This document shows positions 5,955 to 34,414 of a stretch of 64,000 nucleotides of DNA, one piece after another. The DNA comes from Candidatus Poribacteria bacterium (GTDB lineage: Bacteria; Poribacteria; WGA-4E; PCPOR2b). The DNA lies in the NCBI GenBank assembly GCA_965204355.1, contig OZ241983.1, positions 500,483 through 564,482 on the forward strand. The letters are read 5' to 3'. The translations under genes were made by a program, and so were the position numbers. A model generated the notes under the pieces. That model saw nothing but the letters and a program-made list of their open reading frames with translations, was not told where the DNA came from and made no database searches. Within the stretch, counting starts at the first letter, position 1; each line of letters opens with the position of its first letter.

Positions 5955-5991
5955 AAGTTTTCTCCTTGTACTCGTGCCGACAAATAATGCA

Positions 5992-9972: not shown

Positions 9973-10239
9973 TTATCTCCCACCACTCGCATGCGCTCTG
10001 AATGTTCGAGTGGGAGAAAATTCACCTAATTTGTGTCCCACCATGTTTTCTGTAATATAAACGGGAAAGAATTTCTTGCCGTTATGAATGGCGAGCGTAT
10101 GACCAATCAGTTCCGGAGTCACCATAGATCTGCGTGACCATGTGCGAATCACACGTTTTGTTCCAGACCGATTCATCTCATCAATTTTTTTGAGAAGTTT
10201 CGGATCTATGTAGGGCCCTTTTTTCACAGAACGGGGCAT
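9973..10239 (-). CDS. rpsS: 30S ribosomal protein S19
   Basis: [19 protein letters not shown]...[29 protein letters not shown], canonical S19. Confidence 0.92.
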
Positions 10240-10297
10240 GATATACCTCCTGAAGATCGGAAAAAACTACGCAAAGCGTTTTGTCAATCGAGGCAAA

Positions 10298-11122
10298 TTA
10301 CTTCCGACGACTGACAATATAGCGCCCCGATCGTTTTTTAGGATCTCTTGTCTTATATCCTTTAGTTGGAACTCCCCACGGTGTTACGGGGTGTCTTCCA
10401 CCAGCACTTTTTCCTTCGCCACCACCATGCGGGTGATCGTGTGGATTCATCGCTACACCGCGCACTTTAGGACGATGCCCCTTCCATCGATTTCGTCCTG
10501 CTTTACCGATGGTTAGGTTTGCATGGTCAAGGTTACCGACCTGCCCAATCGTTGCCATACATTGCACCGGAAGTAGACGGACTTCGCCGGAGGGCATTTG
10601 AATCCGCGCATACTTTCCTTCACGATCTACTAGCTGTGCCACGGCGCCTGCGCTCCGTACCAGTTGGCCCCCTTTCCCCGGCTGCATTTCTATATTATGT
10701 ATCGATGTGCCGAGTGGGATCCTTTCAAGTGGCATAGCATTGCCAACTTTGATGGGCGCATCTGGGCCAGCATTTAATTCATCATCGACTTGTAATCCGA
10801 GAGGTGCGATGATATAACGTTTTTCTCCATCGGCGTAATGGAGTAGGGCAATACGGGCAGATCTACTGGGGTCATACTCGATTGAGGTGACTTTGGCAGG
10901 GATGCCAAACTTATCGCGCTTAAATTCGATATTTCGATACCGTCGTTTATGGCCGCCACCGCGCCTGCGGACAGTCATACGTCCGAGCGTGTTGCGTCCG
11001 CCCTTTTTGTTCAACCCCTTTGTTAACGATTTTTCGGATTGTCGCCGGGTCACTTCTTCAAAAGCATCCCCTGTTATAAATCGGCGACTGGGTGTGACGG
11101 GTGAATATGTTTTAACTGCCAC
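10298..11122 (-). CDS. rplB: 50S ribosomal protein L2
   Basis: 274-aa [18 protein letters not shown]... with the conserved GHK and GGGEGK regions. Confidence 0.93.
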
Positions 11123-19112: not shown

Positions 19113-19168
19113 CTGGGGGCAATGCGGTTCGATTTGGAGTGTCTCATTAATTCTAAAATCTACTATAA

Positions 19169-20326
19169 TCAGCACGAGTTGGTCCAACTTGCTACGAAAT
19201 CATCGATGTCGAAGACGGGCATCTCGTTAAAGGTATAGGGGGTTGGTTCCTTGTTTTGAAAACCGGGCACGAGTTGAGGCGAATCGGTCTGGAGTATATT
19301 ATCCAACGGGAGAAATCGTTGCCAGAGCAGTTTTCGCTCCGACTCCGTGAAACGGTTGGACATCGGCTCGCGTGGATGAAGGCGTATGTTCTTCGCCCGT
19401 TTAGACAACAGTACGAGGCATGTCATTCGACCTTCCGCCCCCGGGTGTAGTTCAGCCAAGCCCTGACGAAACCCTCCTTCATCTAACCCAATAATCGCAC
19501 GGAAAATATGTTCGATCAGTGCGAGTTCGCTTCGTTCCAGTTCGAGAAAGTGTTTAAACTTAGCTGCCAGATGCGTCGGTAGCCTGTCAATCAACTCCGG
19601 CTGCCAGACGAAGGAGTGTGCGTGTGGGTATATGCTGCTCCTAAAGGCGCGATAGGTGTACTGTAATGTTCGACGCAGTTTCGTGCTGTAGTTGCTGCCC
19701 CAATGGAGGATTGTATTCAGGTATACAACCCCGTCACCTGCCTTCAACTCGATTGGGATGCCGCTATCCAACGGCTCATGTTCGCTTTTGGACAGTTGGC
19801 GATTTTCCGCCTCGGTATTGAACCTTCTGTGGCTACCGGGAACTGCCCACAGTACGTCGTCGTCATACAGTGGGATGTTCCATTGCGTGTATGCCGGAGG
19901 GTTCGCCAGAGAATCTGTGAACAATCCCTCCAACGGTCCCTCGCGCCACGACCGGATATCGCGATGCCAATCCCAGGGACCGTGATCTACCCGCGGGTTG
20001 CAGAACATGCCGAATTGCAGGGGCGCTACTTCCTCCGCCTGCATTAATTGCTTGCTGATTCCGTATGTATTCTCGTGGAACACGAATTCTACTGACTCTG
20101 CGGCTTCTGAGTCGACCACCCGATCAAACAGGACCCGTGGCTGCGGACCTGACTCCCACTCTCCGCCCGGTGGCTCATCCGGCTTACGATTATCCGCCCA
20201 CCATCCCTTATGCCGTTCAAGCATCCCCTCACAATGCGTCCGCAACGACTCAAGTTGTCCCGGTGGAACACAGTCGTGTACGATGATGTAACCTTTATCC
20301 TGAATTTCTTTTGTGTCTATGGGCAT
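19169..20326 (-). CDS. phytanoyl-CoA dioxygenase (PhyH) family Fe(II)/2-oxoglutarate-dependent oxygenase, paralog 1
   Basis: 385-aa ORF with W-H-x-D (WHRDIRSW) and [IV]xGSH (VPGSHRRF) motifs, shared with the two downstream paralogs. Confidence 0.65.
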   Translation of the reverse strand: MPIDTKEIQDKGYIIVHDCVPPGQLESLRTHCEGMLERHKGWWADNRKPDEPPGGEWESGPQPRVLFDRVVDSEAAESVEFVFHENTYGISKQLMQAEEVAPLQFGMFCNPRVDHGPWDWHRDIRSWREGPLEGLFTDSLANPPAYTQWNIPLYDDDVLWAVPGSHRRFNTEAENRQLSKSEHEPLDSGIPIELKAGDGVVYLNTILHWGSNYSTKLRRTLQYTYRAFRSSIYPHAHSFVWQPELIDRLPTHLAAKFKHFLELERSELALIEHIFRAIIGLDEGGFRQGLAELHPGAEGRMTCLVLLSKRAKNIRLHPREPMSNRFTESERKLLWQRFLPLDNILQTDSPQLVPGFQNKEPTPYTFNEMPVFDIDDFVASWTNSC

Positions 20327-20411
20327 TGTGACGGTATTCGTCTCCGATGTATCGGGGCATCTGTGTTTAGGACTGTCTATAGTAGATTTTAGAAGTAATT
20401 AGACACTCCAA

Positions 20412-20502
20412 CCCGGTGCGGTTAGGAAAACGAAACGACCGTTTGGTAGGCGCTGTTTCTAACTGCGCCTATTCGGTGCGGTTAGAAACCGCACCTACCG
20501 GG
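20412..20502. repeat. REP-like palindromic intergenic element, family A (copy 2)
   Basis: CCCGGTGCGGTTAGGAAAACGAAACGACCGTTTGGTAGGCGCTGTTTCTAACTGCGCCTATTCGGTGCGGTTAGAAACCGCACCTACCGGG, between PhyH paralogs 1 and 2. Confidence 0.8.
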
Positions 20503-20550
20503 AGGTGAAAGTGTCTATCTGTTTTTAGAATCCACCATAAATGGCTTTTA

Positions 20551-21492
20551 TCACTTTTTGTGGATCTCTGCTGTCTGCTTGGCAACCGTTTCAAGTTGGT
20601 CTTCATCCCACTGTTCTTGCTGCTGCAGTGCGTACAACGATGTATAACCGCCCGACCAATCGGGTGGCACAAGGCATGGCCGATCGTCGTGGTGCGCCCA
20701 ACGCGCCGGTTTGCCCTTTACAATGGTGCCCTCATATCGACTGGGTAACGGGTTGGCGGTGTAGGTGAAGGCATCGGCTGACGAGTAGATATTCAGCAGC
20801 AGGGGTCGCCCTTGGTCAGAGAGGTTCGGTTTGGAACCGTGGATCACGCGGCAGTTATGAATCGTGATGGATCCGGCGGGACCCTTCAGATATTCAACAT
20901 TCTCCGTGTCAACGCTCTTGGCATCCTCGTCGCTGAGGCAACCGACCCACTGATTGCCCTCATTGTATTGATTGAAAAGTTCGCCTTTATGGCTTCCGGA
21001 GATGGCACCGAGGGGGCCTTGATCATCGCCCACATCGTGCAGATAAACGCCGATTGTGAGTGGACTATAGTTGGTATGGGGCCAGTAGGTGATGTCTTGG
21101 TGCCACTTGACCTCTTCGCCGCCTTCTGCCCATTTGAAGTTCAGTTTAGAGTGATGGAATTTCACGTCTGGTCCCACCAGATCTGCTGCTACGTCTACAA
21201 TAATCGACTGCGACGCAAACTCCCAGTAGGTTGGGTGATGTTCGACTGGACTGGTCAGACGACGCAGGCGTGGATTGTCCGCTGTGTGGCCCGGCTCCAG
21301 ATCGAATACCATGTCTGATTTATTTAGAGACCGGCTGCGCTGCACCATTTCGTCTGTAACGTCGATCAGGCGTTCGACCCAATCCTGCGGCACGATACTT
21401 TTAACGAGTAGGTATCCGTTCTCAAAGTAAAATTGACGCTGCGCTTGGGTAAGCGCCTTTGGTTCGTAAGACAATATCTTCTCAGGTGTCAT
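20551..21492 (-). CDS. phytanoyl-CoA dioxygenase (PhyH) family oxygenase, paralog 2
   Basis: 313-aa ORF with WHQDITYWP and ISGSHKGE motifs, a classic PhyH fold signature. Confidence 0.75.
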   Translation of the reverse strand: MTPEKILSYEPKALTQAQRQFYFENGYLLVKSIVPQDWVERLIDVTDEMVQRSRSLNKSDMVFDLEPGHTADNPRLRRLTSPVEHHPTYWEFASQSIIVDVAADLVGPDVKFHHSKLNFKWAEGGEEVKWHQDITYWPHTNYSPLTIGVYLHDVGDDQGPLGAISGSHKGELFNQYNEGNQWVGCLSDEDAKSVDTENVEYLKGPAGSITIHNCRVIHGSKPNLSDQGRPLLLNIYSSADAFTYTANPLPSRYEGTIVKGKPARWAHHDDRPCLVPPDWSGGYTSLYALQQQEQWDEDQLETVAKQTAEIHKK

Positions 21493-21541
21493 CGGATAAC
21501 CTCCTTCTATGCGAGATCAACAATAAGGTCTACCTTTTCTT

Positions 21542-22384
21542 CTAATCGGACTTTCGCTGATACAGAACCCGCCCGTACGGTTCAGCGTTGCCGTCGTATT
21601 TTGGATTGAGACGGCGAACCATCTCCTGCGCTTCTGGGGACCAATCTTCGGGGATGGGATGTGTTTTACTTGCCAGTTGTGCTTTGATACGTTCCGGCAA
21701 ATTGCCAAAATCGGGCTGGAACCAGAGTGTGATGACTGTGCGGCGTTCGTCGGAACTGTTGGCGTAGGAAGCGTGCAGCAGGCGCGAATCACCGATCAAC
21801 AAGTCGCCTGCTTTGACCGGGACATCAACTTCATCAGGGCGTGTCGAAAATTCGGGAAGGTCTAAGTTCTTTGCCGCTGAAATCTCACCGGCGTGTGGTT
21901 CCATGATTAAGTCGTGGAGTGGGTTATGTTTGTAATGCGATCCCGGAATCACACGTAGGCAACCGTTATGTGGCGTGGTATCGGTCAGGTAGTACATAAA
22001 AAAGACCTGCTGCGGTCGTGGGTCGTAGGTAGTTGGATCTTCCCAACCAAACCAGTCATAGTGCCAAAACAGCGGTGGACTGTGCGGCGGCTTGCTGAGG
22101 ATATACCCACTGGTAAAGGTTGAATCTTTGAATCCCATTAATTTCAATGCGTCAAGCGACAGCTGCCACGCGATCAGTTCCGCGAAAACCGGATCTTCGT
22201 AGGTTCTGAACGCGCTTCCTTGGGAGCGGAAATAGCTTTTATGCTCCTCTGTCATGTTTTCGCAGAGCCTGTCTGTCACGCTCCGAAGTTGGCCGAGTAG
22301 CGCATCGTTCAGGATATTCTCAAAAATACAGTATCCTTCATTGATGAGTTGGTTATGTTTCGCTTTCGACATACTGCTCCTCAA
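21542..22384 (-). CDS. phytanoyl-CoA dioxygenase (PhyH) family oxygenase, paralog 3
   Basis: 280-aa ORF with WHYDWFGW and IPGSHYKH motifs. Confidence 0.7.
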   Translation of the reverse strand: MRSSMSKAKHNQLINEGYCIFENILNDALLGQLRSVTDRLCENMTEEHKSYFRSQGSAFRTYEDPVFAELIAWQLSLDALKLMGFKDSTFTSGYILSKPPHSPPLFWHYDWFGWEDPTTYDPRPQQVFFMYYLTDTTPHNGCLRVIPGSHYKHNPLHDLIMEPHAGEISAAKNLDLPEFSTRPDEVDVPVKAGDLLIGDSRLLHASYANSSDERRTVITLWFQPDFGNLPERIKAQLASKTHPIPEDWSPEAQEMVRRLNPKYDGNAEPYGRVLYQRKSD

Positions 22385-22415
22385 ATTGCGGATTTGAAAA
22401 CGCCCGCGCCCAATG

Positions 22416-23831
22416 TCAAGAATTGACCTTAAAGGCGTATAGATGAGCGTTTTGTAGATCGAACTTCAGACGTATTGTTTTCCCAATTAAAGGTGCTAGG
22501 TCGGCATGATTTGCCCATCTGGGCTGTAGTTGCAGTTCGTCCATGCCTTTGATATCTTGGCATACCGCTTTGGCGAAACCGGGAATCTGCCTGCCCACTG
22601 CGTCCAGGATCTCTACGGAAATCTGTCCTTGAGAAGTATCGGTGTTGAGCTCAAGCTGACTACCTTCCAGTTTGAATGGTTTGGTCGTGACCATGCCCGG
22701 AGTTGAGTCAGCTTCCAAAGACATGAATCTGTCCAGTCGCAAGGTCGCTAGCCCAATCGACATCCGGTTTTCTAAGTCTTTATGGCCTTTATCCATCGCT
22801 CCGTAGTACAGCCAATGGCGGTTCTTCCACGTCACAATCTGCGAGAAGGGAAATGCTCCCGCCGCATCGAAGCTGCCTTTCGGACCAGGAGGAATGAACG
22901 GTTCGCCCGCATAGACCCAACTTAAGTCCCAATGAGAAGCATCACGACTCGTACCGATATAACAATCGATTAAGCCCCCGGTCCGTAGCACGCTCATCAG
23001 GGCGAAGTGAACGCCTTGGTACATCCAGTCTGTCAGTGCGTAAATTTGCCGCCGTTTGTATTCTGAATCTCCCTCGCGGTCGAACTCCCAGCTTTGAATC
23101 AGTGTCCACCCTGTTGGATCCGCTTTCACGTCAGGATTGGTCATGGTGCGGCTGCCGCGACTTATCTTTCGGTCATCTCCCTCAGCAGGTCCGGCGTAAA
23201 TATCGCGGGTGAAGATCCTGTACACTTTCGCATCCCTGTCCCAATTCATCTGATTATGCGTGTCCGATGCGGTGACGTAATTTCGCCCTTCGATTTGGGG
23301 GTGAGGGATCGCGGTTCGGGACAATACAGTCTTTCCGTTGTTGTAGGCTGTCCACTGGATGCCGTCTGGAGAATGGGCGAGATGAACCGCCTTCTGACTT
23401 TTTTCCCAGCGACCGGCGGGGCCGTATGCCCCCTTGTACCTGTGATTCGGGTCTTTCTCATTCTGATCGATAAAACAACTGAAACCGTGTCCTCGAAAAA
23501 CAAAGTTACCCCTACCGTCCTTCCCCACGTTCGGTCGTTTCCACTGGATGCCATCTTCGGACTCGGCATATCCGATGTCGTAGTTGGGTCTGTTTGTCGC
23601 TAGATACCACATCTTGAATTTGCCATCGTCTCGCAGCACAGTTGAATAGACGCCAAAGTAGAGGGGATATTCCCGCTCATTGGGCACCATGAGCGGTTGG
23701 GCTTCCTTCGTAACTGTTCCCAGCCGACGGGCGACATTTGACCTCTCAGCAACGATGTAATCATCTACGAAAAGCTGTTTCCGCTTACCTATTCTCAGAG
23801 GTTCTTCGACCTTGGTGTTTTCAGCTGTCAT
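22416..23831 (-). CDS. putative glycoside hydrolase-like beta-propeller protein with C-terminal beta-sandwich (GH32/GH43/GH130-superfamily-like)
   Basis: 471-aa ORF. Repeated Trp/Asp-rich blades (DGIQWKRP, DGIQWTAY, HWDLSW) and a C-terminal beta-sandwich-like segment. Family assignment is tentative. Confidence 0.35.
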   Translation of the reverse strand: MTAENTKVEEPLRIGKRKQLFVDDYIVAERSNVARRLGTVTKEAQPLMVPNEREYPLYFGVYSTVLRDDGKFKMWYLATNRPNYDIGYAESEDGIQWKRPNVGKDGRGNFVFRGHGFSCFIDQNEKDPNHRYKGAYGPAGRWEKSQKAVHLAHSPDGIQWTAYNNGKTVLSRTAIPHPQIEGRNYVTASDTHNQMNWDRDAKVYRIFTRDIYAGPAEGDDRKISRGSRTMTNPDVKADPTGWTLIQSWEFDREGDSEYKRRQIYALTDWMYQGVHFALMSVLRTGGLIDCYIGTSRDASHWDLSWVYAGEPFIPPGPKGSFDAAGAFPFSQIVTWKNRHWLYYGAMDKGHKDLENRMSIGLATLRLDRFMSLEADSTPGMVTTKPFKLEGSQLELNTDTSQGQISVEILDAVGRQIPGFAKAVCQDIKGMDELQLQPRWANHADLAPLIGKTIRLKFDLQNAHLYAFKVNS

Positions 23832-24289
23832 AATCTGTACCTCTATGGTCGTGGGTTAACATCGGACGCTGCTGGTCAATCTAACGGCTCGCTAGACGAG
23901 TTCAATTCTGAGTTGTTTTCCCATTGCACGTGCTAACCGGTCTAACGATGCCAAAGTAATGAACGTGTTATCCGGATTGAGTGGGCGATCGAGCTGCACC
24001 TAATCGGGTCAAAGACTTGATTATTGTAGTCGAACAGGAAAGGCAAAGTCAAGAGTAGAAATTTGCAAGGGGTTAGGAATTAGTGGGTGTCGTTACAATT
24101 TATCAAACCAGGGTTCGATTCGCCGTTGGGAATTCATGATTAACTTCATTTTATGCTCTGAGTTATTGCTATTAAGCCCTCGTAGTTGCCAAAATTTAAT
24201 AGAGAAATCGCTGTGTCGAACTTCCTCGTCTTTCCATATCTAGTGCGCTCCCAGCGCGAGATTTGAACTTCTTAGCTGATTCTCTCTCA

Positions 24290-25258
24290 TTAAGAAATTG
24301 GGCGTCCTTCTCCCGTATCCGTTTCGCTCTTAAAGTCTGTGTACTTACAAAGATGCTGCAGGAATTTCTCTAATTCGTGTAAGTCTATGTCATACTCACA
24401 ATGGTCTTTTGGAGAAATAACAATTGTCAATTTTTCAGCAAATTTCTTTTCCGAACATGCTGCAATAAACGATTGAATAATCTCTCTAATCATTTTCTCT
24501 CTTTGCACGTTTACCCTAGCACGGCCCGTGCCTAAAACAGGTACTATAAGATTTCCGAGTTCACCTTGTTCCCCAATATGATTCCAGAGTTTACCTAGGC
24601 ACTCTACTATTTCTTCAAATGAGCCATCGGGTACGCCATGTTCATTCGTATCGGCAATTGCAATCCAATAAGCCATTTGGCCTTTGGGTTTTAACCCAAC
24701 GACAGTGCCAATCTCGTAACGCTTTTGTTTTCCTTTTCTGTTATCTTCAACCAAAGTAAAACTCTGATTTTCTAACTTTTGTTCTAATTCATAATCAAGA
24801 TGTTCTACCGCGTTATAGTACCTCTGCGTAAATTGTCCCTGTAAACTGTCTGCAGAAATCAAGCCTCCTGATATATCAGTATCGAATGTCGTATTTGTGC
24901 TTATAACAAATACCCCATCCTCAATATTAAAAATATCGTCAACTCGAATTTCTATTAACACATCGGTTTCACCTAGCTTCTCGCTTACCGGAAGCATCTT
25001 TGGTTTCTCGCTTACTAAAGGCATCTTTGCGCGTTTTCGAAGTAAGCGGGCAATACCTACAAATGCTCCAACTACAATAATCACGACAAGCATTAGGAGG
25101 TTACCACTGGACCGTTCGTCAAACGCAGTAACGAAATGAGATAGTAGTTCAATTGCTACCCAAATCGCGCTATAAAAATAGCACGCTGTGCGTATCACTA
25201 GCCTGTACTGTCGGTAATTTTTCAAGTGATTTCTAGTAAGAAAACGAGGTAATTTCAT
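24290..25258 (-). CDS. thsA: Thoeris ThsA-like effector, type II architecture (two N-terminal TM helices + C-terminal Macro-like domain)
   Basis: 322-aa ORF. Two hydrophobic helices (LVIRTACYFYSAIWVAIELLSHFV and LLMLVVIIVVGAFVGIARLL) are followed by a Macro-like domain (VFVISTNTTFDTDISGGLISADSLQG... and LIVPVLGTGRARVN, resembling macro VNAAN..GGG and PxIxTG loops). It overlaps the upstream ThsB gene by 4 bp. Confidence 0.6.
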   Translation of the reverse strand: MKLPRFLTRNHLKNYRQYRLVIRTACYFYSAIWVAIELLSHFVTAFDERSSGNLLMLVVIIVVGAFVGIARLLRKRAKMPLVSEKPKMLPVSEKLGETDVLIEIRVDDIFNIEDGVFVISTNTTFDTDISGGLISADSLQGQFTQRYYNAVEHLDYELEQKLENQSFTLVEDNRKGKQKRYEIGTVVGLKPKGQMAYWIAIADTNEHGVPDGSFEEIVECLGKLWNHIGEQGELGNLIVPVLGTGRARVNVQREKMIREIIQSFIAACSEKKFAEKLTIVISPKDHCEYDIDLHELEKFLQHLCKYTDFKSETDTGEGRPIS

Positions 25259-25758
25259 AATCCCAATTCAGTGTAAAGGGTTTGCTTGTAATAATACGGA
25301 CCAGATTTTCCTTGTTGCTTATAGTGATCGTGACTCGCTGACCAATTATCTAATGCATGCTGTACAATAGCAGCATTAAAACTGACATAGACGACCAGTT
25401 CATCACGTATTATGGGTGGACACCTGACAGAATCTTGTTGTCTGAGTCCATTCAAATTAACACCAATTATCGGGATATCTAAAGATAACGCTTGTTCCAT
25501 CTCCCACCGTACAAACCGATAAAGATATCGTGTATTTTCCCCAATTAAGACTACCATAATTTTGCTGTTTTTCAATCTTACCCGGAGCCGCTGCCTAATT
25601 GACTCTGTTAAACTTGTGTCCCGCCCAGTATTTAAATCGTGAGCATCAAAGAAGTTGAAGGAAAAGCCATCATTTTGCTTCCAAGCCTTCATCAACCAGT
25701 AATAGCGTATATCGGTGTCACCATCAAAACACACGTATGTTTTGTTTCTGTAAGGCAT
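25255..25758 (-). CDS. thsB: Thoeris ThsB, TIR-like domain protein (DUF1863/MTH538 TIR-like)
   Basis: 167-aa ORF. KTYVCFDGDTDIRYYWLMKAW...FDAHDLNTGRD...IMVVLIGENTRYLYRFVRWEMEQALSLDIPIIGVNLN aligns motif-for-motif with Bacillus cereus ThsB (FFSFHYQD...FDASLWED...VTCVLIGSQTFNRRWVRYEI...IIGIHIN). Confidence 0.8.
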   Translation of the reverse strand: MPYRNKTYVCFDGDTDIRYYWLMKAWKQNDGFSFNFFDAHDLNTGRDTSLTESIRQRLRVRLKNSKIMVVLIGENTRYLYRFVRWEMEQALSLDIPIIGVNLNGLRQQDSVRCPPIIRDELVVYVSFNAAIVQHALDNWSASHDHYKQQGKSGPYYYKQTLYTELGL

Positions 25759-25845
25759 AATATCGCCTAATTTCCTTTCTAAATTGGATGTCAGAAATCA
25801 TTTCCGCAGTATCGCATAGTAGCGGTATTGTTTCCTGATTGCACT

Positions 25846-26202
25846 TCATTTCAACTGCTTGGCAATTGGAACTATGTCTTCGTCTGGTATTTGAGAAAGT
25901 TTCATAAGATTGTAAAGATAATCACCTATTCTATGGAGGGTCATATCACTAGGTCTTACACTCCTCATTCTAGACAGAACATTTCGTTCAAAAGTAATAG
26001 TATCTGATTTAAAGTGAATATATTCCTTGCTATAAAGATCGCTGCATTCATAAAGTACTTGATAGAGATTTTCTTCAATCCTTGCATACTCACGGTAATT
26101 ATTATCGCGCAACTCGTAGGCATCTTTTAGTATACAAAGTTTTAGTATGCATAGTTGTTGGTAAGTTAGTTGCTCTGCAGCCTTTATGAGTTGGTGTGCC
26201 AT
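25846..26202 (-). CDS. hypothetical protein (defense-island resident, no recognisable domain)
   Basis: 118-aa ORF, AT-rich codon usage like the neighbouring Thoeris genes; I recognise no motif. Confidence 0.4.
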   Translation of the reverse strand: MAHQLIKAAEQLTYQQLCILKLCILKDAYELRDNNYREYARIEENLYQVLYECSDLYSKEYIHFKSDTITFERNVLSRMRSVRPSDMTLHRIGDYLYNLMKLSQIPDEDIVPIAKQLK

Positions 26203-26221
26203 GTGTGGGCTGATTGCCGGA

Positions 26222-26655
26222 TCAAAGGCAATGCTTGAAAGTAAATTCGATTTTGTTTTCTTTTGGCTCTCTTTGAGCTTTCAATAATATGCTTTCTGCA
26301 ACTTCTTCCGCATCTGATCTACCCGCTGGTTTTTCATCGAAAAAACCATCCTCACGGAGACTTTCGCCGGTTTCTTTCCGTTGGTGAATGTCCGCAGCTG
26401 CAATTGCAAGTACAGCACCCACCCGAACTTTTTCTCGTGTTCCGAGTTGCCGTTCCGCAATTTCCTGCCCAACTTTGCTTAACGCAATTTCGATCCCCTT
26501 ACCACCAATTGCGCCAATTACTGCTCCGCCTGGTCCCGCAATAAGCCCTTCGATCGCTGCACCAGTAGCGGCACCGGCACCACTACCAAGAAGTTCTGCT
26601 CCGTGGTGGAAAGTTGCTGGAGGCCATCGTTCGTTTCTATCTTTCTTTCAGATGT
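26222..26655 (-). pseudogene. possible frameshifted small glycine-zipper membrane protein gene
   Basis: An in-frame Gly/Ala/Ile-rich segment (LLGSGAGAATGAAIEGLIAGPGGAVIGAIGGKGIEIA...) lies upstream of the called GTG-start ORF and has no ATG/GTG/TTG start. An ATG-started 47-codon ORF in another frame precedes it, suggesting a frameshift. Confidence 0.25.
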
Positions 26656-26692
26656 CATAGACACTATCGGGTCTTCTTTGCCGTTCGTCGGA

Positions 26693-27304
26693 TTATTGCC
26701 CTAGAGAGGAACCTAAGCCTGAATCTCGGTCAAACTTTGATACAAGAAAATCTACATCGTCCGGAGTTAGATCTGGAAATTCCTTGATTATATCGTCTTT
26801 AGTTATATCTCGGAGTGAGGGCTGATGCTCGCGCAGTCTGCGAACGCAGTGTTTGTCCTCGTCAAGGCGGGGTTTGATTATTGCCAACGCATGTTGATAA
26901 CTGGAAAGGCATGGAGTCCAATGAGACTGGGCAAACTCTTTCTTCATGTAGTGGGCCGCAAAGTAGCAAGCAACTCCTTCTTCGAAATTATTGGCGTTTC
27001 GCCCTCCGCTCGGTGAGAGTAAATGAACTGCTTCATGCGCCATTTGATAGCACGCCCGCGACATACTTGTACCAGCTGAAAAATCAAGTTGGATCACGAT
27101 ATGACAGCGATTTCCAGGATACCATATTTGGGGGCCATCGGACGCAAACTCTATACCGAGGATGGTGTACGAGTTGTCACGCGGTCCGAATAATTCCTCA
27201 GCCATGTGAAGCATATCACCAAGTCGAGAAGCCAACGTCCATGTGTAGCCCCTCCCATTGGCTAGACGTTCTGCAATTATTAAATTCTCCCTAATACCCT
27301 GCAT
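26693..27304 (-). CDS. HExxH-motif putative zinc metallopeptidase (ImmA/IrrE-like?)
   Basis: 203-aa ORF with CYQMAHEAVHLLS (HEAVH = HExxH). It lies 3 bp downstream of the Abi-alpha-like gene. Confidence 0.4.
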   Translation of the reverse strand: MQGIRENLIIAERLANGRGYTWTLASRLGDMLHMAEELFGPRDNSYTILGIEFASDGPQIWYPGNRCHIVIQLDFSAGTSMSRACYQMAHEAVHLLSPSGGRNANNFEEGVACYFAAHYMKKEFAQSHWTPCLSSYQHALAIIKPRLDEDKHCVRRLREHQPSLRDITKDDIIKEFPDLTPDDVDFLVSKFDRDSGLGSSLGQ

Positions 27305-27307
27305 ACA

Positions 27308-28117
27308 CTACGTTCCTTCGGTTTTGAGGTTTTCGGCCGCTAGCGCGTTGGAAACTGATTTGGGAATTCCTTCAATCTCAGGGGAAAAATCGTCTGTGAG
27401 CAAGAAGTTAAGATCTTTATCGCCGTGTCCAAATGCCCATAGTAACAGTTCGGCCCCTAATGCACTAGGTGTACATATAAACCCACCGCTAGGAACACCA
27501 CTGAACAGGTCCTTGAGAGACTCTTGAGGACCAAATCTCCAATCGTTGTCTATGAGACCATCTCCATTGAGGCCATGAAAAATATGATTTAACATTTGGC
27601 GATTATCCCATTCTGGTTGTGTGAACTCCATAGCTTCCGCATAATTTTGAAGTGGCATGAATAACTGCATTTTTCTCCTATTTTCATGCAAGTTAAAGCT
27701 ATTTCCACTGTTCGAGAACAATTCTGATATGGTGGAGTAAATGAGATAGTGTGATCGCAATTGGTATGCTGACATGTTGTCGATCATCTTCGCTAATCGC
27801 GCTCCTCTATCATCTCGACCTACCTCAGTCCTTGATGATGCTAAGACTCCACCAAAATACTCTACAGCAACAGTATCCTCAGCATATGAACCCTCATTAA
27901 GTACTGTTTTGAAAACTTTGGGAGGAATTCGTCCGGGTCTATTCAATTTATCACCAAGTTTTTCTCCTGCGTTTAAAAGAATCTTATCTGCGTTCTCCTT
28001 CCGCTTTCTTTTCCATGCTAAAAGATCTTCTCCGTAGTCTTCCGCGATTGGTCCTAGTAGTTTTATTACAATATCACCAATAGTCCCTGATAGCCCTGTG
28101 CTAGAAGTTTCTGACAT
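27308..28117 (-). CDS. Abi-alpha (DUF4393)-like abortive infection candidate
   Basis: 269-aa ORF. The N-terminus IVIKLLGPIAEDYGEDLLAWKRKRKENADKILLNAGEKL resembles, from memory, the conserved N-terminal motif of Abi-alpha family proteins. Co-oriented and almost abutting the HExxH gene. Confidence 0.35.
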   Translation of the reverse strand: MSETSSTGLSGTIGDIVIKLLGPIAEDYGEDLLAWKRKRKENADKILLNAGEKLGDKLNRPGRIPPKVFKTVLNEGSYAEDTVAVEYFGGVLASSRTEVGRDDRGARLAKMIDNMSAYQLRSHYLIYSTISELFSNSGNSFNLHENRRKMQLFMPLQNYAEAMEFTQPEWDNRQMLNHIFHGLNGDGLIDNDWRFGPQESLKDLFSGVPSGGFICTPSALGAELLLWAFGHGDKDLNFLLTDDFSPEIEGIPKSVSNALAAENLKTEGT

Positions 28118-28196
28118 TTTAATATCTCCTACAAAAGTTAATAACTAAGATGAGTAAATCCGCCATTCCCGATAAGAGATTTGGGTTGTTCGGGTT

Positions 28197-29108
28197 CTAC
28201 TTCATTTCCTCATTGGCTTTTGCCAGAAAGAGAATGTTTGATGCAGTCAAGTGAAGGGCGTATGCAGCCATGTATTCCGGAACGGGGATCACTTTGGAGC
28301 CCTGCCCATGTCCCGACTGGCGATTGCGAGCAGTGGGAAGCCCAGATTCCAGTGTACTTCTGAGACTCGTAAAGTGTGACTGCATGTAATCTGGAATTAA
28401 TTTTCTATCAAATATAACCCCAATCAGACGACTGGCGGTATCTGTTTCCTTATATTTCCACCGCCTCGTTGCACAAATCGCTTTCATACAACTCTCAAAT
28501 GCCTTGAGACATTCGTTCATACATGCTTCGTAACTTTTCGCTCGATAGTGCTTGTGCGCTTTCAGAAATTCGTCATTTGCCCCTTCGTACATCGGATCTG
28601 AAAGCATCTTCAGTGCAGGCTTCATTGCTTCAGAATGGATGAACTCAGAATCAACTCGGACTATTTGACCTGATTCATACTGATACCCAACGCCACGTTC
28701 TCGGAACCAATAATTTAATTGTGCAATTGCCTCGTCGGGTGAAATGCGGCTGTAGCGTTGATCCATATATCGGAATGAAAGTTCAATGACATCAATTGCC
28801 TTTTCTGCTTCCTCTGTTTGAAGGAAAAAGTTGTGGACTGAGTCAAAATCAGAATCATGGGGGCCGCCAAGGCCTAGCGTGCCATAATGGTAGCTCAGAG
28901 TTTTGTGGATAAACTCGTATGCCACGGCAGTGTCGCTAGGATAGTAGAGTCCTCCCATGCTACTATGTTCAGTCTCCCCAAAAGCCTCCTGCCAGATGTG
29001 GATAACCTGAACTCGTAATTCTTGGGGAATCGTTTCGTATTGATATACGTCTGGAACTTCGCCTCGGAGACGCTTTTGACGCTTTGAGAAAAGATCAAAA
29101 ACTGACAT
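28197..29108 (-). CDS. HEPN-domain protein (Rx4-6H motif), AbiJ/Abi-like abortive infection candidate
   Basis: 303-aa ORF. The C-terminal region has the HEPN signature RNRQSGH (R-x5-H) in a predicted helical context, TARNRQSGHGQGSKV. Confidence 0.45.
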   Translation of the reverse strand: MSVFDLFSKRQKRLRGEVPDVYQYETIPQELRVQVIHIWQEAFGETEHSSMGGLYYPSDTAVAYEFIHKTLSYHYGTLGLGGPHDSDFDSVHNFFLQTEEAEKAIDVIELSFRYMDQRYSRISPDEAIAQLNYWFRERGVGYQYESGQIVRVDSEFIHSEAMKPALKMLSDPMYEGANDEFLKAHKHYRAKSYEACMNECLKAFESCMKAICATRRWKYKETDTASRLIGVIFDRKLIPDYMQSHFTSLRSTLESGLPTARNRQSGHGQGSKVIPVPEYMAAYALHLTASNILFLAKANEEMK

Positions 29109-29126
29109 ACTATTCTACTCCTTTTA

Positions 29127-29162
29127 ATAAAAAAGGCAGCTCCCGATTGTTAGGGGCTGCCT
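29127..29162 (-). terminator. putative Rho-independent terminator after the MTase-HNH gene
   Basis: On the minus strand, the stem GGCAGCCCC...GGGAGCTGCC is followed by a run of seven T. It sits ~20 nt upstream of the HEPN gene's SD (AAGGAG) and start. Confidence 0.5.
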
Positions 29163-29420
29163 CCTGAGTGTTGAAAAAATATTTGCCTTTTTTGCACTAT
29201 TTATGCTAAAATCCTAAAAATAGAGGGGTAGAGACCATAAAATCCTATGCCTCTCGGCAAATTGGAGCGCCCACTCCAGTTTGTTTAACTATCACAGGAA
29301 CCCGGCTTAAACGCCGGGTTTTCTGTTTCCATTCTAAAGAAAATGGTAACATTAATTTTCGTCAAACGCAAGTGCGATTGAAGGTAATGATTCCTATGTA
29401 ATGATCCTGAATACTCAAAC

Positions 29421-30845
29421 TTAATTCCTTTTTAACCTCACCCGCAGCTCAGCAACTGTGCCTGTTCCCTTCAGTGAATTGCAAGCCCCACACAACAGCC
29501 ATAAATTCTCAAAATGATCTGTCCCACCCTTACTTCGCGGAATCTTGTGGTCAATCGTCAAATTGCGAAATGGGAAGTGAATCTCGCACCCGCCACATAT
29601 CCCCTCTTGCAGCCCATACAGTGTGTGCTTATGCGTTCGGGCAGGCGGTATATCGCTCATGTCAGTGCGCTGTGGATAGTCGTCGCGGTGGACAATCTCT
29701 GGGAATAAGCCTTGATCTGCTTTGATACGTTCTACCACCAACTCGGCTGCCTTTGATGAAATATCAATCCCTACCCATCTCCGCTGCAACCGGTCTGCTG
29801 AAACCAATGTCGTGGCACAGCCACAGAAGGGATCAAACACAACATCACCGGGGCTGCTACTAGCTTTGATGATGTGCTCTAGGAGAGCAAGAGGTTTCTG
29901 TGTGGGATAGCCGGTACGTTCTTTTCTACCTGGACCTTTGACTTCAGCGATTATATCTTGCAATGCACGCCCCTGACTCGCATCTAGATATCTCTTGAGT
30001 CTTGGCATTGTTCCGTTATTGGGCCAATAAATGAGATCCGCTTCATTGAGGATATCTAGGCGGTCATGCACACTTGTTATTTGCCTGTAATTTGGGATGA
30101 AGTGTTTTTCGATATATTCGGCATAAGCGCCGGTGCGCGGCGGTCTCCAGTGATTCCCAACTGTAGTAGGATCAATGTTACGCCACGGTTGTCCGGACTC
30201 CCCTTGTCTTGGTCCTGATGCTGTGAGATCGCTAGCACTATATCGACCACGAGCATCTTTATTACGGTAGTATTTTTTGACGTACTCCGGATCATGCGCT
30301 TCATACTGTGTGTGCCATGTCGCCCCTTCACCCCTGACATAATAAAGGAGGGTGTCGTGGATGCGCCCAAATCGATTCGGATCGTTGTGAGTTGAGGTCC
30401 GCTTCCAAACAATTTCATTCCGAAAATTATCAGCGCCAAAGATACTATCCATCACCAACTTCAGGTAATGAGAGGCGGTCGGGTCGCAGTGTAGATAAAT
30501 GCTCCCCGTGTCTTTCAGGATACGCCCCATCTCCAGTAGACGGGTAGACATCATAATGAGGTAGCTTTGCATGCCTTTGCCGTGTGTTTCGCGTGCTGCT
30601 TGTATCACGGTGTGGAGGGATGGGGCTTGTTCAGCAAGTTCGCCGTGTTCAGCGATATCAATGTCGTTGAGGGTCCAAGTATCTTTGAAGGCGGCACCGG
30701 CGGCTCGGCTGCCAATGGGGGCGGCATAATTGCGGTTAGAATTAAAGGGTGGATCGAGATAAATCAGATCGACGCTATCGCTATTCATCCCCCGCATAAT
30801 GTGCAAGTTATCACCGATGAAGATGGTTTTGTCTTTCCAGTTCAT
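29421..30845 (-). CDS. DNA amino-methyltransferase (beta-class, N6-A or N4-C) fused to C-terminal HNH endonuclease domain
   Basis: 474-aa ORF. Motif IV DPPF (DLIYLDPPFNSN) precedes motif I (VFDPFCGCATT) and TGYPTQKP. The C-terminal HNH has CGGCEIH...IDHKIP...HFENLWLLCGACNSLKG. Confidence 0.7.
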   Translation of the reverse strand: MNWKDKTIFIGDNLHIMRGMNSDSVDLIYLDPPFNSNRNYAAPIGSRAAGAAFKDTWTLNDIDIAEHGELAEQAPSLHTVIQAARETHGKGMQSYLIMMSTRLLEMGRILKDTGSIYLHCDPTASHYLKLVMDSIFGADNFRNEIVWKRTSTHNDPNRFGRIHDTLLYYVRGEGATWHTQYEAHDPEYVKKYYRNKDARGRYSASDLTASGPRQGESGQPWRNIDPTTVGNHWRPPRTGAYAEYIEKHFIPNYRQITSVHDRLDILNEADLIYWPNNGTMPRLKRYLDASQGRALQDIIAEVKGPGRKERTGYPTQKPLALLEHIIKASSSPGDVVFDPFCGCATTLVSADRLQRRWVGIDISSKAAELVVERIKADQGLFPEIVHRDDYPQRTDMSDIPPARTHKHTLYGLQEGICGGCEIHFPFRNLTIDHKIPRSKGGTDHFENLWLLCGACNSLKGTGTVAELRVRLKRN

Positions 30846-31159
30846 TCGTGTTAGAAAACTACCTTGTTATGAATTCTGGGATTGCCGTTTCATTCTCTTG
30901 GGAGTGGGAAGTATCACCAGGCGGTGATGTCATATCCCCCCACGAAAAGGATAGTAATGTATACCCTATACAGAAAGCCCTGTCAACTCATAATTCTAGC
31001 TGACAGCGCTCTTATTTGAATCTCACCATCTTTATTTCGTTGACTTTTTTTTTACGGCTCATGTATGATTGAGAAATTATGGTGAACTTTAGAATTACTT
31101 GAGGGGTGTGCATAAATCACTTTCGTATGGGAGAGCAATCTGCGATTCAGACAGATGGC

Positions 31160-31235
31160 ACATGTCGCCCCGCTGGGGCTTTGGGGGATGGGGCTATCCG
31201 TATGCTATAAACATGTCGCCCCGCTGGGGCTAAAT
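31160..31235. repeat. REP-like bipartite palindromic element, family B (copy 1)
   Basis: ACATGTCGCCCCGCTGGGGCTT-(28 nt)-CTATAAACATGTCGCCCCGCTGGGGCTAAAT. Each half holds the hairpin GCCCC-GCT-GGGGC. Related copies at 46610 and 51126. Confidence 0.75.
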
Positions 31236-31504
31236 GCACCCTGTCCCTTTCTAAAATAGTCCCGTTTCACTTTCCAGTTTCTATCCCCGATAAATCGGGA
31301 TTAAGAAACCTGAGAATCCTGATTCAGACAATAATGATGCACACCCCTCAATTACTTGGACACTCTGTACCGGCGAGGTTTCCTAACCGCACCGCCTCCC
31401 GACGAGTCGGGACAGGACATGGGGAGCGAAAGTGTCTACATATTTTGATAATTCACAATAAATCAACCCAGTCACATAGTGATTCTGATAATAAGGGAGG
31501 GCTG

Positions 31505-32383
31505 ATGATTAAACTCGGTTGTAATAGCTTGGTGAAGGATAGAGACAATCCCGGTGGGTGGATCGATATTGAGACGATGATTGATTTAATTCATACGTTG
31601 CGGCTCGATATCATTGACTTTCAACTTGATAGAGGATTTCGTTCGCTAGAACCGGCGTATCTTCGCAAGGTCAAGATTCTGTGCCATAGGTATGGATTGC
31701 CGATAGGTTTCATAGGCGCTGGCAGTGGGTTTGTTAGCGCTGCTCAACTGCCGAATGGGGATGTGGTTGGTGTGGGGCTATCGCCGGACGAGTTACAACA
31801 ACGGATTGATGAGGTCAAGAGAGCGGTGGATGTTGCCGTCTTCATGGGTGCCCCGCTGATTCGTCTGTTTGGCGGAGGGGTGCCTGAAGGGACGGAGAAC
31901 CGCGAGGCGGTGTGGTCAACGATGATCTCCGGGTTCCAAGCGGTTTCCGACTACGCAGCTGAGAAAGGGATCCTTATCGGTCTTCACAATCATCCGCCGG
32001 CTGTGGAGCCGACGAGCGATGATATCTTCCGCATCCTGAACGACGTTGACCGTGAGAACTTTACTTTTATCTTAGATACGGGTCGGTGGCGCGGTGCACC
32101 GACAAGTAGGGAAAAGACTTCCGATTCAAGTGAAAATATCTACAGATACATGGAGCAGACCGCGCCTTACGCTTCATACGTGCGTGCTAAGATCTATAAG
32201 GTTGATAGCGGTCAGGAGGAGTTACTCGACTATAGACGTATTATTGCTATTCTCAAGAAAGCAAACTTCAACGGAAATATGTCGATTGTTTACGAGGACC
32301 AGGGCAATCAGTGCGATTACGCCGAAGCCATTGGGTTGGCGGTCAAACATTTACGGGGGTTGCTCGCAGAATCGGAGGAGTGA
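31505..32383 (+). CDS. sugar phosphate isomerase/epimerase (xylose isomerase-like TIM barrel) family protein
   Basis: SD AAGGGAGGG precedes the ATG at 31505. The translation (MIKLGCNSL...IGLHNHPP...IVYEDQGNQ) fits the AP-endonuclease-2/xylose-isomerase-like TIM fold. The ORF-track start at 31334 is probably too early. Confidence 0.55.
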   Translation: MIKLGCNSLVKDRDNPGGWIDIETMIDLIHTLRLDIIDFQLDRGFRSLEPAYLRKVKILCHRYGLPIGFIGAGSGFVSAAQLPNGDVVGVGLSPDELQQRIDEVKRAVDVAVFMGAPLIRLFGGGVPEGTENREAVWSTMISGFQAVSDYAAEKGILIGLHNHPPAVEPTSDDIFRILNDVDRENFTFILDTGRWRGAPTSREKTSDSSENIYRYMEQTAPYASYVRAKIYKVDSGQEELLDYRRIIAILKKANFNGNMSIVYEDQGNQCDYAEAIGLAVKHLRGLLAESEE

Positions 32384-32389
32384 GAAGGG

Positions 32390-34414
32390 ATGGCCTCAAC
32401 CCAAACGCGTGAAATTCCGTGGACGGACATAGGGGAACCGCTGGCGGATCTGCTTCGGTACGAACGCAGGATTGGTCACTACGAACACGCAGGTTACGCT
32501 TTACTGTCAACGGTTGTCCATGAGACAGCGGATTCGGCGTGGCGGCAATTCCTATTGGTGGGGGATAATTTTGCTGAAGTGGCCGGGCAGGTCATCGCTA
32601 TATCCGATAGAGAGTCCAAAAATCCCAAACAGGTTCTTGACTCAATCCGCTCACTTGTCGATGCGGCTTACGCCCAGGCGCCGGAAAGAGCAGGGCAGTT
32701 CCTGAAACCATACCTGAAGCACAGGCCGAGTTTCCCGGATCCTATCCGAGAGAGGTTGGACGCACTCTCAATGCGGGGGAAACGCCGGATCCCCCTTCGT
32801 GCAACTGCTTTCGCAGCGGAGATGGAGCGTCTTCGACCGTTTGAGCCGTACAGTGATGTAGCAGAAGCGGTGTCCGAACATTGGTACGAACAGATTCTGC
32901 AAGGGAGCATAACCGCCCGCCAAGTACGCAGGATACCGGCGCGGATACTCACCGCGAAAAAACGCTTGCTCAACCATCTGCGTGAGGTTGAGGGGGATAG
33001 CGTGATTGATGAGGAAACCCTCTTTGGCAGGTATGCAGGTGTTTTTCAGTCAACCGATATCTTGGGGCTGACGGACGTTATCGTTGAGATACCTCGTTTC
33101 AATCTGATATATCGCTTTCATGTCGAGTTCGGTGTAGCAGAGATTGGGCTTTTCTTGAGAAACTTTCCGACGGCGGAGGTACTCAACCGTTTTGAGAAGT
33201 TAGAGGGGTGGATGGGTAAATACCACAAGACAAATCACGATGGCACAATACTAACTCCACCGCTGATTAATTTTCTATCGCAGCAAGCGGATTTTGATTC
33301 CCTTCTAATTGAACTAGACCGATATCGAGCGGATACGCGGAACGGACGATTTGACGTAACCAACATTTTGCAACGGGATCTGGAATTCAGACGCTTCGTC
33401 TACGAGTACACACGGGTGCTGGAACCGCTGACCTATGAACTCCAAGGCAGATATCCGCCGCTGAAGTCGCATAAGGAGTTGTACCGATTATTCAACCAAC
33501 TTGAAGAACTACCGCCGGTTACCGTTGATGCGCCTGATTTGAGCGAACAACATCTCGCAGAAGTCGGTCGAACTGCATACGAAGCTGTGGAGTTTCTCAA
33601 GTTTTTGAGAGGGTTCCAAGCGCGTACCAGCAGGCATATTGTGGTAGTGGGGAACGACCGTTACGGACGACAGTGGGTTGTGGAACCTATCGAAGCGTAT
33701 CTCAAAGAGGGGTTTACGCTTAGGTATGACCGTGTCCGCTCCGGGACATCTACAAGGTTGAGTGTACCCTCCGCTTTCCCAAGGGAATTTGTCAAAGAGA
33801 TTAGTGAACGGATGCCTCATATTGTCATTGTTGACGCGTCCCATGCGCCGCCGGATACCGATGTGATGCAGCTTTCCCGCGGTCTCCGAGGCTATGCCCA
33901 CTGGTTTGCTGCCTTCAACGACATTCGCGCGGAAGGCGATCTTGCCAGATACCGGGATGAGAGTTCACTTCCCGCGGAGCATTTTCCCGAACTTATGAAA
34001 TGGCACGACTACGTTGCACGGAGAGGACAGTTACGGGAATGGGTTTCGCCGGGGCAGACTTACCGGGTGACGACTTGGGCACCGGAGTTGAAAGACACCG
34101 TAATATTGGGCGACATGCGAGTGAAGCGGTATCCTCCGGTCTCCCATGAGGAGATAGGGGGCGACTTACCGATGGTGATTCTGGCAAACCCTATAATATA
34201 CCGCACAGAGGGTGAGGACCTGCCAGATGCGCTGCGGGGCACCACACCACGCCACTTCGATGACCCTGAAGCCCATGCAGTGGATAGTGTTGTGTTCGGA
34301 TTTGGCTCCCACGGACTTGAAACCCGACTTGAGGGAATGAGCACAGAACAGTTTGTCCAGATCGCTCAGGGACACATCAAGAAGGAGATCGATAGGCTGT
34401 TAGAAGAATCGTAA
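32390..34414 (+). CDS. large hypothetical protein (674 aa), no recognisable domain
   Basis: Long uninterrupted ORF, 6 bp after the isomerase stop and 12 bp before the BKACE gene. Codon usage is host-like; I recognise no motif. Confidence 0.5.
   Translation: MASTQTREIPWTDIGEPLADLLRYERRIGHYEHAGYALLSTVVHETADSAWRQFLLVGDNFAEVAGQVIAISDRESKNPKQVLDSIRSLVDAAYAQAPERAGQFLKPYLKHRPSFPDPIRERLDALSMRGKRRIPLRATAFAAEMERLRPFEPYSDVAEAVSEHWYEQILQGSITARQVRRIPARILTAKKRLLNHLREVEGDSVIDEETLFGRYAGVFQSTDILGLTDVIVEIPRFNLIYRFHVEFGVAEIGLFLRNFPTAEVLNRFEKLEGWMGKYHKTNHDGTILTPPLINFLSQQADFDSLLIELDRYRADTRNGRFDVTNILQRDLEFRRFVYEYTRVLEPLTYELQGRYPPLKSHKELYRLFNQLEELPPVTVDAPDLSEQHLAEVGRTAYEAVEFLKFLRGFQARTSRHIVVVGNDRYGRQWVVEPIEAYLKEGFTLRYDRVRSGTSTRLSVPSAFPREFVKEISERMPHIVIVDASHAPPDTDVMQLSRGLRGYAHWFAAFNDIRAEGDLARYRDESSLPAEHFPELMKWHDYVARRGQLREWVSPGQTYRVTTWAPELKDTVILGDMRVKRYPPVSHEEIGGDLPMVILANPIIYRTEGEDLPDALRGTTPRHFDDPEAHAVDSVVFGFGSHGLETRLEGMSTEQFVQIAQGHIKKEIDRLLEES

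Follow-up and report, generated by a model that had tools for sequence, protein, structure and literature searches.

Which kind of system is encoded by an overlapping, AT-rich gene pair on the chromosome of an uncultivated sponge symbiont, and is it intact? This question is raised by a 64,000-nucleotide stretch of DNA from a Candidatus Poribacteria bacterium (GenBank assembly GCA_965204355.1, contig OZ241983.1, positions 500,483 to 564,482), referred to here in its full length as the window. The pair, thsB followed by thsA, lies on the minus strand between positions 24290 and 25758. A first-pass annotation made from the sequence had read it as a type II Thoeris system, in which a TIR-like ThsB is paired with a ThsA consisting of transmembrane (TM) helices and a Macro domain. 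This reading is borne out by Pfam, PADLOC, PDB sequences and fold comparison, four independent sources that back the family membership. Very probably, the two genes together make up an intact anti-phage system of the type II Thoeris kind, which the Candidatus Poribacteria chromosome carries as accessory cargo.

The identification in itself carries little mechanistic weight, as signal and structures of this type of system have been published and both genes are called directly by Pfam and PADLOC. Its value is ecological and comparative: type II Thoeris is found as accessory cargo in an uncultivated sponge-symbiont lineage, and a literature search returned no report of Thoeris in Candidatus Poribacteria. 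The locus furthermore shows thsBA moving, as a compact pair, between a chromosomal hotspot and a circular element of 15.3 kb, and it draws attention to a ThsA clade with altered ligand-pocket residues.

Family assignment of the gene pair

Both open reading frames start with ATG on the minus strand, with the coordinates given in the first-pass annotation. The thsB gene (25255..25758) encodes a 167-aa protein of the ThsB_TIR family, the putative TIR-like sensor and signal synthase of the E. coli ThsB2-like class, and thsA (24290..25258) encodes a 322-aa protein with predicted TM helices and a Macro domain. The two genes are co-oriented and overlap by 4 bp (ATGA, 25255-25258), as had been noted at first reading. 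ThsB matches the Pfam family ThsB_TIR (PF08937) with an E-value of 3.5e-17 and 63.1 bits, against a bit cut-off of 21.2, and the PADLOC ThsB profile PDLC00429 with an E-value of 3.7e-76, spanning residues 1-167 of 167. The sole Pfam domain match in ThsA is ThsA_Macro (PF20016, E 6.5e-50), in which residues 102-281 correspond to profile positions 1-182 of 183. ThsA also matches the PADLOC profile for Macro-type ThsA, PDLC00414 (E 3.8e-66), as well as known ThsA chains in the PDB (8R66 and 9UUZ, E ~4e-13). Both reading frames are full-length relative to the PADLOC profiles. The computational checks proposed in the first-pass annotation, namely searches with PF08937 and a Macro profile, a PADLOC run and structure prediction of the ThsA C-terminus, have thereby all returned Thoeris matches, the last of these being described below. 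Neither of the two sequence-based outcomes that the annotation had named as refuting it, a missing PF08937 match and a ThsA C-terminus without a Macro fold, was observed. With both proteins in dedicated Pfam and PADLOC families, the pair is a new and uncharacterised example of a published system.

An NCBIfam search of both proteins matched no model, and in PHROGs ThsB matched one unannotated family and nothing else. A ThsA sequence 100% identical to that of the window is already public (database entry P0001). A type I Thoeris identity was rejected because ThsA has no SIR2 or SLOG match in Pfam at E-values up to 1; every PADLOC match of ThsA is to a Macro-type ThsA model.

Active site of ThsB

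ThsB aligns end to end (residues 1-167) with E. coli ThsB2 (EcThsB2, PDB 8V6T) with an E-value of 7e-34, its nearest match, whereas the type I ThsB of Bacillus cereus (PDB 6LHY) is matched only marginally, with an E-value of 0.009 and 19 bits. The initial likening to B. cereus ThsB therefore holds at the level of the DUF1863/PF08937 family, but not as a close resemblance.

Conservation in ThsB was counted over 70 sequences, consisting of the window protein and 69 homologues taken from related loci. The predicted catalytic glutamate, E86 (codon 25501..25503, minus strand), is aligned with E89 of EcThsB2 and is conserved in all 70, and W85 is conserved in 68. Position 8 (codon 25735..25737, minus strand), aligned with Y8 of EcThsB2, is tyrosine in 62 sequences, including the window protein, and phenylalanine in the remaining 8. 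In EcThsB2, Y8 is hydrogen-bonded to the catalytic E89, and this active-site tyrosine marks a ThsB class that occurs exclusively with TM-Macro ThsA partners and bears a C-terminal tail of ~20 residues containing Y159 and Y164 (Shi et al. 2024, PMC11204291). The tail tyrosines are also present in the window protein, as Y157 (66/70) and Y162 (69/70). Judged from these aligned residues, the window ThsB belongs to the active-site-tyrosine class, corresponding to the EcThsB2-like subfamily 9 of Shi et al. (2024).

Membrane segment and Macro domain of ThsA

The N-terminal part of ThsA contains two predicted membrane helices within residues 20-77 (25028..25201, minus strand), based on hydropathy and AlphaFold2 modelling. 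Residues 54-73 are strongly hydrophobic, with a Kyte-Doolittle 19-residue mean of 2.77 compared to a customary threshold of 1.6 for a membrane helix, and are flanked by RKR. Beyond residue 100 no segment exceeds 0.98. The AlphaFold2 model was built on a 35-sequence ThsA alignment (A1) and has a mean predicted local distance difference test score (pLDDT) of 79. At the N-terminus it places helices at residues 9-42, 44-50 and 54-77 with a pLDDT of ~70-76, forming a hairpin of two long helices. The modelled hairpin fits the two-helix membrane anchor of type II ThsA, the first helix being a candidate membrane-spanning segment.

Residues 90-306 (24341..24991, minus strand) form the Macro domain, the predicted signal-binding module, and most of this region is modelled with a pLDDT of 80-93. 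A Foldseek search of the model against the PDB returned the ThsA Macro structures 8V6R, 8R66, 8V6Q and 8V6S as top matches (E ~1e-14, target TM-score 0.79-0.83), followed by the macro domains of PARP14, macroH2A and OiMacroD from Oceanobacillus. This agrees with the Macro-like C-terminus proposed in the first-pass annotation. At the sequence level, the four known Macro chains of ThsA (8R66/9UUZ, 8V6Q/R, 8V6S) are matched with E-values of 3e-13 to 3e-8, and the 35-sequence profile lifts these matches to 3e-24 to 7e-16.

Between the membrane segment and the Macro domain, a 27-nt tandem duplication (24978..25029, minus strand; TRF period 27, 1.9 copies, 84% matches) adds nine residues to the linker (KMPLVSEKP / KMLPVSEKL). 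Within alignment A1 this insertion is confined to the window ThsA and its 90% identical relative P0002. Residues 78-86 are modelled with low confidence.

The residues that contact histidine-ADP-ribose (His-ADPR) in the Macro domain of Bacillus amyloliquefaciens ThsA, and those that contact ADP-ribose (ADPR) in E. coli ThsA (EcThsA), were mapped onto the window protein through HMMER alignments, i.e. by sequence alignment only. By this mapping, three of the six His-ADPR-contacting side chains are retained in ThsA: D108 (Bacillus D100, E. coli D83), Q142 (Bacillus Q135) and R248 (Bacillus R240), the last of which corresponds to the binder of the histidine carboxylate. The other three positions are changed. 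Bacillus N133 (E. coli N114) is replaced by Q140, with glutamine being invariant in alignment A1, and Bacillus S194 (E. coli S175) by A202. The adenine-stacking Y277 of Bacillus (E. coli H259) is replaced by S282, a position at which serine, tryptophan, tyrosine and phenylalanine occur within the clade. The clade to which the window ThsA belongs carries the motifs STNTTFDT and SLQGQF, compared to AFNEYFDT and SLNG in the structurally studied proteins from Bacillus, E. coli and Pectobacterium. This clade is common in Poribacteria and in other metagenome-assembled genomes (MAGs) of apparent sponge association.

Comparison with characterised Thoeris systems

One of the closest characterised counterparts is the TM-Macro Thoeris of E. 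coli, comprising EcThsB2 (8V6T) and EcThsA (8V6Q, 8V6R) (Shi et al., Sci Adv 2024, PMC11204291). For E. coli ATCC 25922, a thsA-thsB2 pair has also been described (10.64898/2026.01.22.701046). The window ThsB shares with EcThsB2 a full-length alignment, the Tyr8/Glu site and the two-tyrosine C-terminal tail. Likewise, ThsA resembles EcThsA in its two helices followed by a Macro domain, and the window model superposes on it with a target TM-score of 0.79-0.81. However, the window encodes one ThsB, whereas the E. coli systems also have ThsB1. In addition, the Macro domains are only 22-24% identical in the structural alignment, and N114, S175 and H259 of EcThsA are replaced by Q140, A202 and S282.

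The type II system of B. amyloliquefaciens Y2 (8R66 with His-ADPR; 10.1101/2024.01.03.573942) likewise consists of one ThsB and a TM-Macro ThsA. D100, Q135 and R240 of its ThsA are retained as D108, Q142 and R248, and the Macro fold is matched with an E-value of 7.9e-15 and a target TM-score of 0.82. The two systems differ in three of the six ligand side chains and in their hosts, a Firmicute compared to a Poribacteria sponge symbiont. A 195-aa ThsB chain in PDB entry 9UV0, deposited together with a ThsA chain that has the B. amyloliquefaciens sequence, is matched weakly by the window ThsB (E 2.8e-5). By description, the type II system of Pseudomonas aeruginosa MRSN11538 shares with the window a Gram-negative host, the thsB-thsA order and the two-gene composition; His-ADPR production and defence that depends on the Macro pocket have been shown for it (10.1101/2025.02.20.638879; 10.64898/2026.06.04.730250). 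The type I system of B. cereus MSX-D12 (6LHY, with a SIR2-SLOG ThsA) has in common with the window pair a PF08937 ThsB and, by analogy, the activation of ThsA by a TIR-made small molecule. It differs in that the window ThsA is without SIR2 and SLOG, and its ThsB is matched at only E 0.009. Furthermore, type I uses 1''-3' gcADPR and NAD+ depletion, and type II neither (10.1101/2024.01.03.573942).

Proposed mechanism

By analogy with these systems, an infection cue would be sensed by ThsB, a small TIR-like enzyme with a putative Tyr8/Glu86 active site. By exchanging the base of NAD+, ThsB would then produce a conjugate of ADPR. Most probably this conjugate is His-ADPR, the signal demonstrated in the B. 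amyloliquefaciens and P. aeruginosa systems (10.1101/2024.01.03.573942; 10.64898/2026.06.04.730250). The conjugate would be bound by the C-terminal Macro domain of ThsA, and signal binding would lead to a higher-order ThsA assembly in which the N-terminal membrane hairpins are clustered. The clustered hairpins would arrest or kill the infected cell before phage progeny are released. Signal identity, ligand-induced oligomerisation, membrane effect and defence phenotype are thus carried over from the characterised systems. Confidence in the exact signal is lower than for the system as a whole, because three of the six pocket residues differ in the ThsA clade of the window.

Several observations weigh against this interpretation. 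Purified E. coli ThsB2, the closest solved relative of the window ThsB, shows no in vitro NADase activity (PMC11204291). With the E. coli ATCC 25922 system, growth is arrested, but the membrane is not depolarised and the cells do not die (10.64898/2026.01.22.701046), and even in characterised systems the effector outcome, membrane disruption or non-lethal growth arrest, is unsettled. In the window ThsA itself, three of the six His-ADPR-contacting side chains differ, by alignment, from those of the solved Bacillus and E. coli proteins. Moreover, residues 20-46 have a marginal Kyte-Doolittle mean of 1.45, below the customary threshold of 1.6, and contain E37 and H41; of the two N-terminal membrane helices proposed in the first-pass annotation, the one at 54-73 is well supported, while the one at 20-46 is marginal in hydropathy and modelled as a long helix (residues 9-42, pLDDT ~75). 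Finally, a promoter and terminator scan gave consensus matches at or below shuffled expectation, none of which was convincing.

A mobile thsBA cassette in a variable island

The closest ThsA, the 90% identical P0002, is encoded on a contig (ENA ERZ26693581, ctg352101_78x_c; here L081) whose sequence recurs exactly every 15,266 bp, and L081 is therefore a circular element of ~15.3 kb. Its genes encode a tyrosine recombinase, an excisionase-like helix-turn-helix (HTH) protein, a 1221-aa protein and a DUF559/Vsr-like nuclease, with the thsBA genes located at 9501-10969. A blastn comparison aligns positions 24280..25763 of the window (minus strand) with 9496-10979 of L081 at 90.7% identity over 1484 bp, and finds no further DNA match between the two sequences. 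The shared stretch begins 5 bp upstream of the thsB start and ends 10 bp downstream of the thsA stop. In both settings the cassette has a GC content of 0.395, against a background of 0.48-0.50. Taken together, these findings show that thsBA is mobile in sponge symbionts, as a tight 1.48-kb cassette that has passed between a variable slot of the chromosome and a small integrase-bearing circle.

On the chromosome, the pair is situated at the left edge of a variable low-GC island of 7.5 kb (24127..31591), which is delimited by its GC content and by comparison with a sister-strain contig (L082). The sister contig encodes a protein 95% identical to that of the gene left of the island. It aligns with window positions 19168-24126 (86-94% identity) and 31592-34087 (84%), leaving 24127-31591 unmatched. 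In the window, the slot is bounded by a 471-aa gene and an AP-endonuclease-like gene. In place of the island the sister contig holds 6.2 kb of other cargo, including an IS3-type transposase, a DUF4476 protein and a HepT-like fragment. The GC content is 0.396 in the thsBA pair, 0.439 across 23900-31300 and 0.503 in the window outside the island. Along the sequence, it is 0.38-0.42 over 24000-26500 compared to 0.50-0.53 in the genes on the left. Lateral acquisition of the thsBA island is supported by its low GC content, by its absence from the sister strain and by the second copy of the cassette on L081. Both the AT-richness of the pair relative to its flanks and its lateral origin, as stated in the first-pass annotation, are hereby upheld.

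The two copies of the cassette also allow selection to be assessed. Between window and L081, the ratio of nonsynonymous to synonymous substitution rates (dN/dS) is 0.10 for thsB and 0.25 for thsA, indicating purifying selection on both genes and arguing against a decaying remnant. The 34 ThsA replacements are distributed over residues 1-98 (19), the C-terminal tail (7) and the Macro core (8). The synonymous rate dS amounts to 0.52 for thsB and 0.21 for thsA, a 2.5-fold difference between the halves of the cassette that hints at recombination inside it.

Alternative explanations

A variant of the proposed mechanism keeps the architecture and the effector logic and changes only the signal: the ThsA clade would recognise a non-histidine ADPR conjugate made by a co-evolving ThsB. 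Such a conjugate, carrying another amino acid or an imidazole, would represent a second signalling chemistry within type II Thoeris. This is improbable. In its favour, half of the ligand-contacting side chains are replaced, including the Asn-to-Gln change at the distal ribose (position 140) that is invariant across the 35 sequences, and the solved structures include no member of it. Against these changes stands the retention of R248, the histidine-carboxylate arginine, in most of the clade. The N-to-Q and S-to-A replacements are conservative around the ribose and could offset each other, and the protein backbone provides much of the hold on the ligand. On the enzyme side, ThsB proteins of TM-Macro systems accept several imidazole-type bases, with E. 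coli ThsB1 taking histamine and not histidine (PMC11204291). However, the window ThsB is a full-length match to EcThsB2 (E 7e-34) with a common Tyr/Glu site, in a class proposed to make His-ADPR, and a thsB-thsA pair, that of P. aeruginosa, has been demonstrated to produce His-ADPR (10.64898/2026.06.04.730250). That the clade may sense a different ADPR conjugate is accordingly given a small chance next to the His-ADPR signal of the proposed mechanism.

Two further explanations question the defence role or the function of the pair. It could serve mobile elements as a module for addiction or stabilisation, in which a toxic membrane effector is restrained by signal control and phage defence is not the main role. 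The presence of the cassette on a 15.3-kb integrase-bearing circle and in a variable chromosomal slot would suit such a module, but carriage by mobile elements is typical for defence systems. Likewise, thsB1 of E. coli ATCC 25922 is toxic when heterologously expressed, whereas the characterised TM-Macro Thoeris systems all require both genes for phage protection and are non-toxic at rest. As Pfam and PADLOC scans of both proteins also showed no antitoxin-like feature, an addiction role is very unlikely. The pair could also be a decaying, non-functional remnant in a gene-losing island, given that the gene just upstream of thsB is broken across frames and that the ThsA linker contains a 27-nt duplication. 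This duplication, however, lies in a poorly ordered region and is common to the copy on the circular element, and both reading frames are full-length relative to the PADLOC profiles. With the low dN/dS values of both genes, and with the catalytic and most binding residues intact, a decayed remnant was rejected and is the least likely of the explanations considered here. An intact type II Thoeris system therefore remains the preferred reading of the pair.

Distribution of the gene pair

Species-representative genomes were scanned with the ThsA alignment, which yielded 80 loci. Nearest to the window are ten from Candidatus Poribacteria, with ThsA identities of 44-66%, followed by MAGs of Gammaproteobacteria, Vicinamibacterales, Thermoanaerobaculia, Dehalococcoidia, Longimicrobiales, Latescibacterota, Bryobacterales and Gemmatimonadota. 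More distant relatives are found in many Proteobacteria, Bacteroidota and Cyanobacteria and in one archaeon, Methanogenium marinum. A ThsB homologue adjoins ThsA in 76 of the 80 loci. It is located directly upstream, as in the window, in 71 of them, and a more distant ThsB is located downstream in five. The upstream ThsB copies are better conserved (48-81% identity) than ThsA (32-66%).

Type II Thoeris is thus widespread across Gram-negative-type lineages, and systems have been characterised in E. coli and P. aeruginosa (PMC11204291; 10.1101/2025.02.20.638879; 10.64898/2026.06.04.730250). The argument from lineage in the first-pass annotation, according to which Thoeris has mostly been characterised in Firmicutes whereas this host has Gram-negative-type features, is therefore outdated and fails. 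Its description of the system as divergent does not hold either, the window pair being neither strongly divergent nor unusual for this type of host.

The archaeal locus, at 5479-6906 of the M. marinum DSM 15558 sequence (L032), is itself a thsB-thsA pair, with ThsB 67% and ThsA 35% identical to the window proteins, which implies that the pair has crossed between domains of life. Two separate thsB-thsA pairs of the window clade (L008 and L018) are present in one Poribacteria genome, ~70 kb apart on contig CAXXUA010000013.1, with ThsA identities of 46% and 44% and ThsB identities of 54% and 69%, respectively. In two other loci the ThsA copies look inactivated: in L079 (6001-8777) the match is interrupted by ~1.8 kb, suggesting an insertion, and in L080 (6001-6662) it is broken at a frame change.

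Neighbouring genes and other features of the window

The SecY protein encoded in the window shares 94% identity with entries named Candidatus Poribacteria bacterium and with one recorded from the sponge Geodia barretti. The window also encodes three tandem PhyH-domain proteins and a 1428-aa protein with leucine-rich repeat, cohesin and dockerin domains, both of which are in keeping with a sponge symbiont.

Within the island, all genes described here lie on the minus strand. The broken gene just upstream of thsB (25846-26700) extends over reading frames in different phases, consisting of a Gly/Ala-rich segment, then a 66-aa frame (26222-26422) and then a 118-aa frame (25846-26202), with the frame change near an A-rich run at ~26260. 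A search for a family match to this gene found none, and it is probably a pseudogene. Next to it lie a 203-aa gene (26693-27304) and a closely spaced 269-aa gene (27308-28117), whose products have no match in Pfam, PADLOC, NCBIfam or PHROG. An HExxH motif (MAHEAVHLL) in the 203-aa protein suggests a metallopeptidase, and the two genes may together be a module of the defence island that has not been described before.

Further into the island, a 303-aa AbiJ-like HEPN protein (28197-29108) with AbiJ_NTD4 and DUF7014/HEPN domains matches the NCBIfam model STM4504/CBY_0614 (E 2e-109), phrog_20794 (E 5e-109) and the PADLOC candidate PDC-S32. Its gene is likely the second defence gene of the island. 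Towards the right of the island, positions 29421-30845 encode a 474-aa protein in which an N6/N4 DNA methylase is fused to a C-terminal HNH nuclease domain, and which may be a single-polypeptide restriction-modification-like enzyme. The thsBA pair thus sits in a defence-island setting, with the AbiJ-like HEPN protein, the PDC-S32 match and the methylase-HNH fusion all less than 5 kb away.

No integrase match was found among the island reading frames scanned, and no convincing direct repeats flank the island. A tRNA search found none near it, the sole call by ARAGORN being a doubtful 89-nt tRNA-Cys with the unusual anticodon ACA at 40735-40823 (plus strand), and an Rfam scan of the window gave nothing at gathering score, neither a tRNA nor any other family. 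Close to the right edge, still within the island, an exact 21-nt direct repeat that contains a GC hairpin, ACATGTCGCCCCGCTGGGGCT, occurs at 31160 and 31211, and is bracketed by a 21-nt inverted repeat (31093-31113 / 31337-31357). The repeats at 31093-31357 could represent a small repeat element or a recombination site.

Between thsA and a 471-aa gene, a short reading frame on the minus strand (23870-24126) ends in ...LASLDRLARAMGKQLRIELV, which by eye resembles the C-terminus of HTH-type antitoxins. This stretch is placed outside the variable island because it is conserved in the sister strain. At a distance from the island, positions 60246-63485 (plus strand) encode a protein of 1079 aa that is unassigned apart from a caspase domain (Peptidase_C14) spanning residues 384-566.

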